Source: Candidatus Heimdallarchaeota archaeon
GTDB lineage: Archaea; Asgardarchaeota; Heimdallarchaeia; Heimdallarchaeales; Heimdallarchaeaceae
Direction of reading: 5' to 3'
Assembly (NCBI GenBank): GCA_019057375.1
Contig: DXJF01000114.1
Coordinates: 23,787-47,786, forward strand
DNA length: 24,000 nt
Every line of letters begins with the position of its first letter. Within the stretch, counting starts at the first letter, position 1. This document shows, one piece after another, positions 2,807 through 8,737 of this stretch. The position numbers were made by a program, and so were the translations under genes. The notes beneath the pieces are model-generated. The model was not told the DNA's origin, ran no database searches, and worked only from the letters and a program-made list of their open reading frames with translations.

Positions 2807-3580
2807 TCAGTTGTTTTCTTCTTGCAAGGGAAAGTAAACAGGAAATATAAGACGAGCAAAATTTTGGTACATTTCAACACTATAATCTTTCTGTTCGATT
2901 AATCCTTCCAGTTTTACGATTTCAGATTCAGTATAACCTCTCATATCTGGAAATTCACTTTGGTTACCATAATCCATAATTTTGCAAATTATTTCACCGA
3001 CTTGCTCTAATTCTAGATATGATTCGATTAGGATATGAATGTGGGGAGTTAGTTTATCTGATTGCTCTTCCTCTTTAACTGAATCAGCTATTCTTACTGC
3101 AGAAAGGATTGCAGCTCTTCTTGTAATGTAGTCCTTTGCATAAACTACATTCTTCAATGGATAAAGAACGTCTGCATCATCTAAGTAACCTATCGCCCTA
3201 ATTGCTGCATACTGAAGGTCATAATCACTTTCTTCTAGTATTTTTACCAAATAAGGTTTGGACGCATAATCCTTTAAATGACCTAAAACTTCCAAAGTGG
3301 ATAGTTTAATCGCCAATGAACTTTGTTCTATAAGATCATGAAGAAAGCTTAAGATTTTCTCTTTAAGCTCTGGAAATTTTGAAGCATATTCAACTAGGGT
3401 TGAAGCTGCGGCATTTCTTACATTCCAGTCAGAATCTTCTATTAGTGGATAAACTTTGTTGATTCTCTTTGCTTTACCATTCTTCTGTAAGAATAAAGCA
3501 AAATTAGCTCGATCTAGGGGATCGTCGCTTTTTTGTTTTCTACCTATGAATAAACCTCTAAAGAAATCTACTAAACTCAT
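2807..3580 (-). CDS. HEAT-repeat (PBS-lyase-type HEAT) protein, last gene of the five-gene operon
   Basis: It has three or more HEAT_PBS-like repeats: LIEDSDWNVRNAAASTLVE, ILEESDYDLQYAAIRAIGYLDD, VVYAKDYITRRAAILSAVRI. Its ATG (3580..3578) overlaps the upstream stop as ATGA, which indicates translational coupling. Confidence 0.8.
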   Translation of the reverse strand: MSLVDFFRGLFIGRKQKSDDPLDRANFALFLQKNGKAKRINKVYPLIEDSDWNVRNAAASTLVEYASKFPELKEKILSFLHDLIEQSSLAIKLSTLEVLGHLKDYASKPYLVKILEESDYDLQYAAIRAIGYLDDADVLYPLKNVVYAKDYITRRAAILSAVRIADSVKEEEQSDKLTPHIHILIESYLELEQVGEIICKIMDYGNQSEFPDMRGYTESEIVKLEGLIEQKDYSVEMYQNFARLIFPVYFPLQEENN

Positions 3581-5181
3581 AATTCAAACAACCCCTCTTT
3601 AATGAGATAACTTATAGCTCCTCTTTGTGGTTGAGTTAGCTTTCTAAGAAATGTATAATCTATTTTTCTAACTTCAAACCTTTCTTCCTTTTCTTCATCT
3701 AAATCAAACTTGTAAGCATCCTTCCTTTTTGTAACTTGAACAGCTCTTGTAACTACAGGAAGGTTATATGGCGATAAAGATTTGTACTTTGCTTTATGAA
3801 CTGCAAATAAGGTTGCAACATGAATTCCCCCTATTTTCTTGAAAACGATAATATCCGCAAAAGCTGGAAGGATTGTTTTGAAATCGTCTCTATACAAAGC
3901 CATATGATTATGTAAAATGACTAACTGATCAATTCCTACACCGTACTCGTTGGCTTCAAACACATATACCTTCTTATCATCTACTTTTACATATCCTTTT
4001 GAGGAAATTCTAGGATTATCATCAAGTAGTTGCCCAAAGGTGGAATATTTTCTTCTAAACACCTTACTTACGTATTCTTCAATTTGTCTCCACCCATATG
4101 CATAAACAGACCAAATATCAGTCCATCTGCTTCTGGATGAGTGCCAATGTTCAACTACAAACTCAGAGTGAGCGTTTTTGTTAACAGCTTGTAAATCCTT
4201 AATCTCATTCCATGAAAACTCTTCAAGGAATTCTAAATCAGACTTAAATGAGAAAAGCTTCTGAAATACTGTTTCCTCATCACTGTACTTTGCAACTAGT
4301 TTATTCATCGCAGCAAGACTAAATTCACCTATAGGAGGTGCAAGGAAAGCTTTCAATTCTTTAGGATAGATAATTGTTTTATCTTCGTGTCTTTTTGGAA
4401 GCTTATACTCATCTTTCTCTAGTAAATAATTAATTGCTTTTTTCTGAATGTAATGTGCAAAGCCCTCACCTATAAGTTCATGGAGATTCTTTTTTCTTGC
4501 AACCTTAGCCCTTTCATTTATCAGATTAACTGCTTCTATTGAAAAATTATTGAAAAGAGTATATTTCCGAGCATCTTCTGGGGGAGTATAGAAATCTTCT
4601 ACTCCTGCTTCTGTAAATAATCGAATTACACCTATCAAATCTTGGAAGTATTGCCAAGCCCAAACATGTTTATTTTGTGAAGCCTTGTTCAATTGAAATA
4701 CATTGTTTGTCATTAGTTCTTTTAGAACTAAATCTAATTGGTATAATTGTGCTAAAATTCCTGGTGAGTTAGACTCAGTTTTTTCATTCATATAAGCATG
4801 AGCAAATGCATGTATCAACATAACTCTTAGAGTTAATTCTTGTTCTTTAGTAAGTTCTTTTGGAGGAACAGAAAGATAAACAAGAGTTGGTAAAGAGTTA
4901 TAGACAGTTTCCTTTCCAGTTGGAAGGAAATCACTAATCCTAGCTGACCGAAGGTTTGTAATTTGTTCAGAAGTGAGTATAGCTTGTGGAGTTCCTGTTA
5001 CCTCTACAACTCTATTAACAGAAATATGCATCTCAGGATTAATGAAAATTAATATTCTATAATTCTCAGGTGTTGCTCCAATAAGAGTTTTAAAGTCAAC
5101 TCTTGCATTGTTGTAAACTTGGATTACGTCACTAAGTTCTTCTTTAAGCATGAAATATACTCTCCCGTAGTATTTGCTCAC
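3577..5181 (-). CDS. Hypothetical 534-aa protein; possibly a catalytically inactive zincin (peptidase-MA-like) fold
   Basis: Long ORF with a GTG start at 5181; an alternative ATG lies at 5151. HAFAH (nt 4798-4812) plus the downstream EGFAHY (nt 4450-4467) resembles the HExxH ... EGxAxY gluzincin signature with the catalytic Glu replaced by Ala. The N-terminal 25 aa are paralogous to the N-terminus of the upstream VWA protein, which supports the GTG start. Confidence 0.75.
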   Translation of the reverse strand: MSKYYGRVYFMLKEELSDVIQVYNNARVDFKTLIGATPENYRILIFINPEMHISVNRVVEVTGTPQAILTSEQITNLRSARISDFLPTGKETVYNSLPTLVYLSVPPKELTKEQELTLRVMLIHAFAHAYMNEKTESNSPGILAQLYQLDLVLKELMTNNVFQLNKASQNKHVWAWQYFQDLIGVIRLFTEAGVEDFYTPPEDARKYTLFNNFSIEAVNLINERAKVARKKNLHELIGEGFAHYIQKKAINYLLEKDEYKLPKRHEDKTIIYPKELKAFLAPPIGEFSLAAMNKLVAKYSDEETVFQKLFSFKSDLEFLEEFSWNEIKDLQAVNKNAHSEFVVEHWHSSRSRWTDIWSVYAYGWRQIEEYVSKVFRRKYSTFGQLLDDNPRISSKGYVKVDDKKVYVFEANEYGVGIDQLVILHNHMALYRDDFKTILPAFADIIVFKKIGGIHVATLFAVHKAKYKSLSPYNLPVVTRAVQVTKRKDAYKFDLDEEKEERFEVRKIDYTFLRKLTQPQRGAISYLIKEGLFEL

Positions 5182-8117: not shown

Positions 8118-8134
8118 GAGCTTTACCTTTTTTA

Positions 8135-8737
8135 TTATATATTTTGATTATTTTCTTCTTCTGTAGCAAATTGAACTTGCACAGGTTTGATTTTTTCTAA
8201 TAACTTTTCTTTTTCTTCCCAAGACTTAATGTGTCCGATATGGATTACTCTCTTCAACCATCTTAGAGCTTCAAGTTGAGAAGAGATATCGGGTATGTCA
8301 AATAGATTCCATAGTCTATCAGTAAGACGAATTAAAGAGAGATTCTCAATTAACTCTCCACGAGACAAAGCACCTTGGAGATTTGAGTTATATGCACAGA
8401 TCGCAATTGGAAGACTTTTTGTTTCAGAATCCCAAGCTATCTTTTCCCAGAAATAGTTTCTTTCGTGTTTTATCATTTCTTCTTTGGTTGCATCAATAAG
8501 ATATAACAACCCTTCAAATGGAGTAAATTGCTTATGTTTGAATTTGAACCCTAAAGAATACGGTAATTCAGTTAGAGAACTATCTATTATGAATTCTGAG
8601 AGAGATGTATTAGACCTCATCAGTAGAGTTCTGTTTCTAGTTGCTGGAGTATCATCACCCAAAATTAGTATAGATACTTCTGGGTAGCCTAGTTTTCTTC
8701 GAAGAGAACTTTTCAGATTCTGAATAAGGTTAGTCAT
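8135..8737 (-). CDS. Arf/Arl-family small GTPase homolog with degenerate nucleotide-binding motifs (pseudo-GTPase), first gene of the operon
   Basis: By eye it aligns with Arf1 along its whole length. N-terminal helix: NLIQNLKSSL. The P-loop position reads ILILGDDTPATRNRT in place of GLDAAGKT. GFKFKHKQF corresponds to GFNVETVEY. LPIAICAYNSNLQGALSRGELIENLSLIRLTDRLWNL corresponds to [41 protein letters not shown] corresponds to EGLDWL. Confidence 0.75.
   Translation of the reverse strand: MTNLIQNLKSSLRRKLGYPEVSILILGDDTPATRNRTLLMRSNTSLSEFIIDSSLTELPYSLGFKFKHKQFTPFEGLLYLIDATKEEMIKHERNYFWEKIAWDSETKSLPIAICAYNSNLQGALSRGELIENLSLIRLTDRLWNLFDIPDISSQLEALRWLKRVIHIGHIKSWEEKEKLLEKIKPVQVQFATEEENNQNI

Follow-up and report, generated by a model that had tools for sequence, protein, structure and literature searches.

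The 24,000-nucleotide stretch analysed here (the window; contig DXJF01000114.1 of a Candidatus Heimdallarchaeota archaeon, G+C 35% overall) contains an operon of five genes, which we consider with moderate confidence to be the Heimdallarchaeia version of a PrkA-YeaH-SpoVR-type three-protein module that has lost the kinase-like domain of PrkA and gained two accessory proteins. That module occurs widely among bacteria, where it affects sporulation, stress survival and starvation responses, and its biochemistry is unsolved. The new part would be the kinase-less, Heimdall-specific form, while the bacterial PrkA-YeaH-SpoVR kind is known and the membership of the fourth protein in SpoVR is a candidate one. 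Literature searches found no paper describing the five-gene operon. Its genes, in operon order, are:

g1: 8737 to 8135, minus strand; 200 amino acids (aa), predicted pseudo-GTPase with the Arf-family fold.
g2: 8117 to 6567, minus strand; 516 aa, predicted AAA+ ATPase of the PrkA type, lacking the kinase-like domain that PrkA has at its C-terminus.
g3: 6529 to 5144, minus strand; 461 aa, YeaH/DUF444-like VWA protein.
g4: 5151 to 3577 (ATG start, 524 aa) or 5181 to 3577 (GTG start, 534 aa), minus strand; protein in the SpoVR position.
g5: 3580 to 2807, minus strand; 257 aa, HEAT-repeat protein with HEAT of the PBS-lyase type.

According to the open reading frame (ORF) coordinates, the intergenic gaps are 17 nucleotides (nt) between g1 and g2 and 37 nt between g2 and g3, and g4 and g5 overlap in the ATGA at 3577-3580. 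The overlap of g3 and g4 is 38 nt with the GTG start of g4 and 8 nt with the ATG at 5151; database gene calls of g4 orthologues are 524 aa long, which speaks for the ATG and an overlap of 8 nt. This layout of co-oriented genes (2807-8737, minus strand), with its gaps and overlaps, had been described in an initial annotation made from the sequence, and it matches the ORF list exactly.

By scanning one genome per prokaryotic species, with genes mapped by tblastn and ORF clustering, we obtained a set of 54 loci of Heimdallarchaeia type. In almost every sufficiently long locus among these species-level genomes, the genes g1-g2-g3-g4-g5 are found in one order and on one strand, with g2 identity going down to 50%, and in each Heimdall-type locus of sufficient length g4 is followed by an orthologue of g5 (cluster C3). 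Among the 54 loci, the most distant have an identity to the window protein of 50% for g2, 44-49% for g3, 33-37% for g4, about 30% for g1 and 25-31% for g5. The flanking uvrB, NUDIX and pyridoxal phosphate (PLP)-enzyme genes are shared by close relatives only, and the flanks differ between lineages. In the close relatives, a single conserved copy of the operon is surrounded by uvrB, NUDIX, PLP-enzyme, cysK-like and ABC transporter genes. As the order is kept while the flanks change, the operon is selected as a unit, and it lies amid housekeeping genes and not in a variable island. The initial annotation had regarded the five genes as very likely co-translated partners, and their synteny across the locus set, with variable flanks, agrees with a conserved operon of interacting-looking partners.

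Databases hold 106 homologues of g2 (about 515 aa, 35-97% identity), of which the named ones nearly all come from Heimdall-type Asgard metagenome-assembled genomes, and 33 homologues of g4, nearly all labelled Heimdall-type. The operon is essentially confined to Heimdall-type Asgard archaea, apart from a few unplaced contigs, and is present in most of the Heimdall-type genomes found. The same operon is carried by one locus labelled Thorarchaeota (L017, g2 87% identical) and another labelled Bathyarchaeia (L046); both labels probably stem from mistakes in binning or labelling, and neither locus would then be a true case outside Heimdallarchaeia.

The connection with PrkA is made by g2. An exhaustive hmmsearch with the g2 profile, over 1.84 billion representative proteins, gave 22 matches in all, and its outgroups were P0146 (510 aa), P0149, P0157 (464 aa) and two true PrkA proteins, P0153 and P0156. 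Among these outgroups, Pfam AAA_PrkA was matched by P0153 and P0156, both with the PrkA C-domain, by P0157 (1.3e-11) and weakly by P0146. Comparison of g2 with true PrkA by hhalign gave 98.2% (E = 4.6e-14) over 331 columns, g2 63-434 being aligned to PrkA 76-438. The g2 family is tiny and isolated, and at the level of sequence its AAA domain is homologous to that of PrkA. Because the alignment ends at residue 434 of g2 and 438 of PrkA, and because none of the 43 members of the g2 family matches the C-terminal kinase-like domain of PrkA (PF06798), this domain is taken to be absent. With its 516 aa, g2 is shorter than PrkA (600-740 aa) and has a helical C-terminus of its own, which is about 80 residues long and follows the aligned part. 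The motifs of g2 are:

7914 to 7937, minus strand: Walker A, GPTGEAKS (GPTGEAK[ST] in the family), with G61, E65 and K67 invariant and P62, T63 and G64 at least 90% conserved.
7740 to 7856, minus strand: insertion after the Walker A helix, GCP...CPxC, with C92, C123 and C126 and the invariant E96 and D97.
7440 to 7457, minus strand: Walker B variant FIVVNE (family pattern hhhhNE), in which the catalytic Glu is retained and Asn stands where Asp is usual; it aligns with 'GIMEFVE' of PrkA.
7239 to 7325, minus strand: sensor-1 FTSN (N268) and the arginine candidates R284 and R293 (IINRIPEVLWPAR), in invariant columns.

C92, C123 and C126 are the only cysteines of g2 and are nearly invariant, and the insertion that holds them is a possible metal site. 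It is common to g2 and its nearest PrkA proteins, P0153 and P0156, and occurs in P0146, P0149 and P0157 as well, but not in E. coli YeaG. Residues N225 and E226 of the Walker B variant are invariant in the 43 sequences, and this non-canonical Walker B context is shared with PrkA. For the sensor-1 and arginine segments, we read AHSNE and FLDR as the counterparts in E. coli YeaG, from an alignment whose consensus was printed as 'ah~~~' and 'afl~r'. The AlphaFold2 model of g2 (predicted local distance difference test score, pLDDT, 77.9) consists of an AAA+ core and a helical C-terminal region. When compared to the PDB by Foldseek, it gave at most weak matches to HslU (E ~3e-3, template modelling score ~0.2), and the hidden Markov model (HMM) profile of g2 matched none of the PDB sequences. 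The earlier description of g2 as a 'MoxR-like AAA+' was right in its AAA+ part and too loose in its MoxR part, since the AAA_3 (MoxR) model matched none of the 43 members and the outgroups have PrkA-type AAA domains. What the family did match in Pfam was AAA_5 (41/43) and Sigma54_activat (38/43), all weakly, together with a likewise weak Mg_chelatase.

In g3, a conserved N-terminal region (MPHRI..WRNPHLGRSSREG) precedes a C-terminal VWA domain with a full metal ion-dependent adhesion site (MIDAS), as the initial annotation had stated:

5789 to 5803, minus strand: MIDAS motif DMSQS (DxSxS), with D243, S245 and S247.
5567 to 5575 and 5471 to 5479, minus strand: further MIDAS residues T321 (GKT) and D352 (TDG).

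All five of these residues are invariant in 15 orthologues, 14 of which match VWA_2 (best 6.4e-5) and three VWA_CoxE. Among PDB sequences, the HMM profile of g3 matched a short VWA stretch only. A DUF444 set was assembled from YeaH, L062, L058 and three phage DUF444 proteins (Pfam-confirmed, 1e-47 to 1e-58), and against this set the g3 family reached 96.2% by hhalign (E = 2.1e-9) over 246 columns. The homology extends N-terminal of the VWA core, the part of g3 upstream of the VWA domain being aligned with DUF444 from about residue 83.

SpoVR-like in both size and position, g4 is the candidate third member of the module. Its AlphaFold2 model (pLDDT 79.6, predicted template modelling score 0.81) runs from an alpha/beta part at the N-terminus through a long helical middle to a part rich in beta structure at the C-terminus; Foldseek found no match to it in the PDB (best E = 0.08), nor did the g4 HMM profile match any PDB sequence, and no solved structure of SpoVR was found for comparison. 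A fused g3+g4 query of the databases also gave no matches. In hhalign comparisons to SpoVR, g4 reached 15-33% (E ~1e-3), always in the segment around EGFA/NEGWAT and with colinear suboptimal alignments, while six negative controls stayed at 0.1-0.4%; the full range for the g4-SpoVR pair was 0.2-33% depending on profile diversity, with E down to 4.6e-4. In BFVD, the g4 model had one significant match, an unnamed viral protein of 617 aa (E = 2e-4, prob 1.00). SpoVR of Thermus phage phiLo has exactly 617 aa, and is probably this protein. The motif of interest in g4 is:

4798 to 4812, minus strand: HAFAH, paired with GEGFAH at 4453-4470.

These two segments sit where SpoVR has H..GH and NEGWAT, and the SpoVR-type residues are degenerate in g4: in Kariarchaeaceae-like orthologues His and Glu are replaced (HAFAKV, QLLAMA, NGFAD, VGFGH). 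In all probability g4 is distantly related to SpoVR, its His/Glu site having decayed. The initial annotation had instead seen a 'Glu-less zincin' in g4. This reading was rejected, as HAFAH lacks the Glu, the His and the Glu of EGFA are lost in the Kariarchaeaceae-like orthologues, and no zincin fold was matched, the best zincin in the Foldseek PDB comparison being anthrax lethal factor with E = 0.97.

The family profiles used with hhalign were built from E. coli YeaG/YeaH/YcgB, L062, about 75-80 operons on IMG/VR viral contigs and the Thermus-phage operons, the members of which were Pfam-confirmed as DUF444, SpoVR and PrkA. A metagenome scan for SpoVR added little diversity, as it returned close relatives of E. 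coli YcgB only (65-100% identity). Gene order gives a second line of comparison. On the IMG/VR viral contigs, the bacterial-type operons run PrkA, YeaH, SpoVR, which is the order of g2, g3 and g4, so that the AAA+ protein, the VWA protein and a protein of about 500 aa follow one another in both cases. The outgroup AAA+ proteins of the g2 search also have such neighbors, namely DUF444 and SpoVR (L062) or DUF444/VWA (L058); P0156 is located in a DUF444-SpoVR-PrkA operon, and P0157 is followed by a DUF444/VWA protein. For the bacterial genes, yeaG, yeaH and ycgB were reported to have strong conserved cofitness and to lie usually in one operon (bioRxiv 10.1101/072470). PrkA of B. anthracis was described as an AAA+ protein whose kinase and protease activities are negligible and which acts in sporulation and osmotic stress, the kinase and protease activities reported for PrkA being disputed (PMC13001217). 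The module is found in bacteria, some archaea and phages; the version described here differs from it in the added Arf-like and HEAT genes of the operon and in its restriction to the Heimdall-type genomes and the few unplaced contigs. The initial annotation had not recognized this combination of genes. As far as all five are concerned this is fair, yet the three that make up the core are remotely related to the PrkA-YeaH-SpoVR module, which is known.

Complete DUF444-SpoVR-PrkA operons were seen in three Thermus phages, phiLo (L226), MN1 (L227) and phiYS40 (L228), and in very large uncultured phages (L229, 595 kb). IMG/VR contained 344 stretches encoding SpoVR relatives (operon loci L146-L225).

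The two remaining genes were attributed to other families. The profile of g1 orthologues had Arf/Arl proteins as all of its top 60 matches in the PDB (best E = 3.5e-11, Arf1), with the Arf, Arl1, Arf6 and Arl3 profiles matched across the full length of the G domain. Pfam Arf matched g1 at 4e-5, in the C-terminal half only, its 23.6 bits being above the cut-off of 22.3. Conservation is highest in the C-terminal 'ALT.SEIIEALSLIRLTDRLW', which has a counterpart in Arf. The motifs G1 (GxxxxGK[ST]), G3 (DxxGQ) and G4 (NKxD) are missing from all 13 aligned orthologues, in which these positions are variable; in the window, the P-loop (G1) position reads ILILGDDTPATR and the G4 position AYNSN. In the absence of a P-loop, DxxGQ or NKxD in any of the 13, we class g1 as an Arf-fold pseudo-GTPase predicted to be unable to bind nucleotide in the normal way, in agreement with the 'Arf-like pseudo-GTPase' of the initial annotation. 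It differs from Arf proteins also in a switch region about 10 residues shorter and in its place inside an AAA+/VWA operon. What it shares with them in Heimdallarchaeaceae is an amphipathic N-terminus: the N-terminal amphipathic helix of the window protein is MTNLIQNLKSSLRRKL, and the hydrophobic moment is 0.53-0.80 in four Heimdallarchaeaceae-type orthologues vs 0.57 in human Arf1. In g1 of another clade, the N-terminus is merely short and basic. Papers describing Asgard Arfs (bioRxiv 10.1101/2024.02.28.582541, PMC11914678) do not mention a protein like g1. For g5, the assignment as a HEAT-repeat protein was confirmed by Pfam, with HEAT_2 at 1.7e-15 (three stretches) and HEAT at 3.4e-6; it also matched Adaptin_N weakly (1.3e-3).

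Which of the genes form the core was judged from divergent and exceptional loci. In one of these, L033, g1 is displaced by about 2 kb and lies on the opposite strand, and in L035, L036, L038, L041 and L043 its slot is empty or taken by an unrelated zinc-ribbon or FKBP-type protein. The divergent locus L145 (g2 36% identical) has clear homologues of g3 (hhalign 100%) and g4 (99.5%), divergently oriented from the AAA+ gene and followed, in the place of g5, by a 391-aa protein with a weak HEAT_2 match (1e-4) and, by our reading of its sequence, a hydrophobic and possibly membrane-spanning N-terminal segment; no Arf-like gene is present at this locus. An unplaced contig with 57% G+C (L055, Logan SRR26786796; triad region 101-10043) encodes the AAA+ protein P0146, followed by homologues of g3 (hhalign 99%, E = 4e-18) and g4 (95.7%, E = 9e-9), the latter reading HAFTHVYQHDH at the HAFAH position, again without an Arf-like gene. 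Four helical accessory proteins of 237, 730, 509 and 324 aa accompany the triad there. Several share the motifs 'FKKSLGKYW' at the N-terminus and 'RRFYG' at the C-terminus, and the four appear paralogous to each other. None of these, nor L058_216, showed similarity to g1, g5, g4 or SpoVR, and no gene of the contig had a precomputed Pfam match. As the triad persists in L145 and L055 without the Arf-like gene, and the g1 slot varies, the AAA+, VWA and g4 genes are taken as the core and the Arf-like gene as a lineage-specific addition. Helical-repeat partners recur beside the triad, and g1 and g5 are lineage-specific accessories.

Some further genes were noted at these loci. The g1-slot protein of the Kariarchaeaceae-like loci L036 (7339-7923), L041 (7353-7934) and L043 (2454-3257) carries a zinc-ribbon-like CxxC...CxxC motif at its N-terminus and is helical at its C-terminus. 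Two extra genes recur beside the operon in other Kariarchaeaceae-like loci (L029:3515-4225 and 4220-4852, also L033, L034, L037, L039 and L040); one encodes a prolyl isomerase of the FKBP type (1.5e-11), which has a Cys-rich C-terminus and a hydrophobic, possibly membrane-spanning stretch, and the other a protein without Pfam match, about 240 aa long. In one Heimdall clade (L042, L045-L050), a Roadblock/LC7 gene lies about 150 nt downstream of g5 (L042:13507-13908, plus strand; Pfam 7.3e-6), and an actin-like gene about 1 kb upstream of g1 (L042:5344-6405, plus strand; ALP_N 1.4e-15, MreB-like_C 5.6e-15).

If the operon is a version of the PrkA-YeaH-SpoVR module, g2 would form an ATP-hydrolysing ring, since its ATPase residues do not vary, namely the Walker A motif, the Glu of Walker B, the Asn of sensor-1 and the candidate arginines. 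By analogy with AAA+/VWA pairs, g3 would be a YeaH-like adaptor, the intact MIDAS of which takes hold of an acidic residue in a client or partner protein that is then remodelled through the ATP-driven movement of g2. The third core subunit, g4, would be a client or a substrate-presenting partner and not an enzyme, given that its His/Glu positions are not conserved. The HEAT solenoid g5 and the Arf-fold g1 may serve as lineage-specific scaffolds and, more speculatively, the amphipathic helix of g1 might bring the complex to a membrane in Heimdallarchaeaceae. If the bacterial module is a guide, the operon would serve the cell in adapting to starvation, stress or dormancy. A natural version without the kinase-like domain would mean that the PrkA-YeaH-SpoVR module works without it; this would argue for the ATPase-adaptor-partner trio as the functional core, and would offer a smaller system for reconstitution.

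Several observations weigh against this interpretation. All three core proteins fall under the Pfam thresholds of the family models: AAA_PrkA (PF08298) matches only one of the 43 g2 members (E = 0.0058), the DUF444 model has no direct match in g3 of the window or in its 15 orthologues, and g4 has no match in Pfam, SpoVR (PF04293) included, NCBIfam or PADLOC. When the family profiles were aligned by hhalign to the single E. coli YeaG, YeaH and YcgB sequences the result was negative, and the links emerge with diverse profiles only. For g3, YeaH-type sequences alone gave 10% and less diverse DUF444 profiles 10-69%, so that the 96% hinges on the divergent phage sequences and L058. The link of g4 to SpoVR is by sequence under any accepted threshold, with less than 1% against E. 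coli YcgB alone, and the naming of its structural match in BFVD depends on protein length only. In the Walker B of g2, the Asn in place of Asp means that ATPase activity is not assured. One locus, L144 (43% g2 identity), has the AAA+ gene without an adjacent VWA or g4 gene. Lastly, the mechanistic content of the analogy is limited, as the biochemistry of the bacterial module is itself unsolved. At L144 (5363-10303), a winged-helix-like protein of 192 aa (weak PadR and HTH_34 matches) is encoded before the AAA+ gene, which is also flanked by proteins of 185, 201 and 266 aa with no Pfam match.

Other explanations start from the pairing of g2 and g3. Maturation machines such as CbbQO, NorQD, CoxDE and BchID-H have as their hallmark an AAA+ gene beside a VWA gene whose MIDAS is intact, and the operon could encode a machine in this MoxR/chelatase style, in which the AAA+ ring and the VWA protein insert a metal or cofactor into one enzyme, or activate it, with g4 holding the substrate. 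Apart from the gene pair itself, this is favoured by the weak matches of g2 to AAA_5, Sigma54_activat and Mg_chelatase, the three g3 orthologues with VWA_CoxE, the His-rich HAFAH and the EGFA of g4 along with its L055 counterpart, and the conserved three-Cys insertion of g2. The AlphaFold2 model of g2 moreover has two short strands between the post-Walker B helix and the sensor-1 strand, which we read as a putative pre-sensor-1 hairpin, a feature of the broad AAA+ group of RavA-ViaA, CbbQ-CbbO, NorQ-NorD and BchI-BchD; an ATP-driven ring acting via a MIDAS adaptor is likely a principle shared with these MoxR-VWA systems. We nevertheless consider maturation unlikely, because AAA_3 is matched by no g2 member, the detectable relatives are PrkA and DUF444 and not MoxR, ViaA, BchI or BchD, the His and Glu of g4 are not conserved, and no BchH/CobN-like protein, known client or conserved target enzyme stands beside the operon, the flanks of which vary by lineage. 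A chelatase as the primary explanation was rejected for want of an H/N-type subunit and a target enzyme. AAA+/VWA pairs also occur in conflict systems, and the least probable of the explanations weighed, for which we see very little room, is a MoxR-vWA-type system for NTP-dependent conflict or for defence against viruses. In line with it are the phage-borne PrkA-DUF444-SpoVR operons of Thermus phages and very large uncultured phages, the SpoVR stretches in IMG/VR, and the L055 contig with its lack of precomputed Pfam matches. The five proteins, however, had no significant PADLOC match (the best, to TRIP13 over the P-loop region, had 2.6e-4, and g5 drew weak, partial matches to HEAT-type models), nothing useful came from an NCBIfam scan, and library scans found no effector domain (nuclease, protease, TIR etc.); a single conserved copy lies at a syntenic housekeeping location in close relatives, and the class-wide conservation looks vertical, with g2 50-98% identical. 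A defence island was rejected on the same grounds of housekeeping synteny and absent defence models. Defence and metal insertion, which the initial annotation had held to be equally open, thus lost ground, as the neighborhood is a core one and a chelatase finds no support.

The presence of an Arf-like protein raises the question of membranes. In a machine like that of a membrane coat or of trafficking, an Arf-like switch would recruit a coat made of HEAT and VWA proteins, the latter resembling the Sec23/24 trunk, and the AAA+ protein would recycle it. Such a reading gains from the true Arf-family homology of g1 and its Arf-like amphipathic N-terminus in Heimdallarchaeaceae, from the weak Adaptin_N match of g5, from the clade with the Roadblock/LC7 and actin-like genes, and from the host, as no archaea known are closer to eukaryotes than the Heimdall-type class. 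We regard it as very unlikely. The nucleotide-binding motifs of g1 are lost in every orthologue, which leaves no GTP switch, and in L033, L036, L041, L043, L055 and L145, the most divergent operons among them, g1 is missing or has moved while the AAA+/VWA/g4 core stays. Furthermore, no Sec23-family Pfam model, the trunk included, matched any of the 15 g3 orthologues at E<=1, g3 matches DUF444 over the VWA core and upstream of it, and the core has bacterial and phage relatives. Nothing specific was found in favour of the coat-like resemblance suggested by the initial annotation. A different proposal, which dispenses with the switch and which we hold to be quite doubtful, is that the Arf-fold protein without nucleotide binding and the HEAT solenoid are fixed subunits of a membrane-acting AAA+/VWA remodelling machine. 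If true, this would be a prokaryotic pairing of an Arf-like protein with an alpha-solenoid, as in eukaryotic coats and adaptors, driven by a PrkA-type ATPase and not by a GTP cycle. For Asgard biology, the operon would be a concrete case of small-GTPase folds and solenoids reused in the lineage nearest to eukaryotes.

Outside the five genes, no Rfam family and no tRNA was found in the window, and the following features were noted:

8738 to 8843, no strand: AT-rich intergenic stretch of 106 nt between g1 and the divergent NUDIX gene, likely to be the promoter region of the operon.
2246 to 2455 and 2541 to 2801, plus strand: small ORFs of 69 and 86 aa between uvrB and g5, 41-96% identical in close relatives and without significant family match.
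14856 to 16808, plus strand: ORF of 650 aa with a weak match to a Cas12f1-like TNB domain (9.6e-5).

The match of the 650-aa ORF suggests a TnpB-type, transposon-associated nuclease. At 16-17 kb the G+C content rises to 0.42, vs about 0.35 elsewhere in the window, and this rise could mark an associated guide-RNA region.

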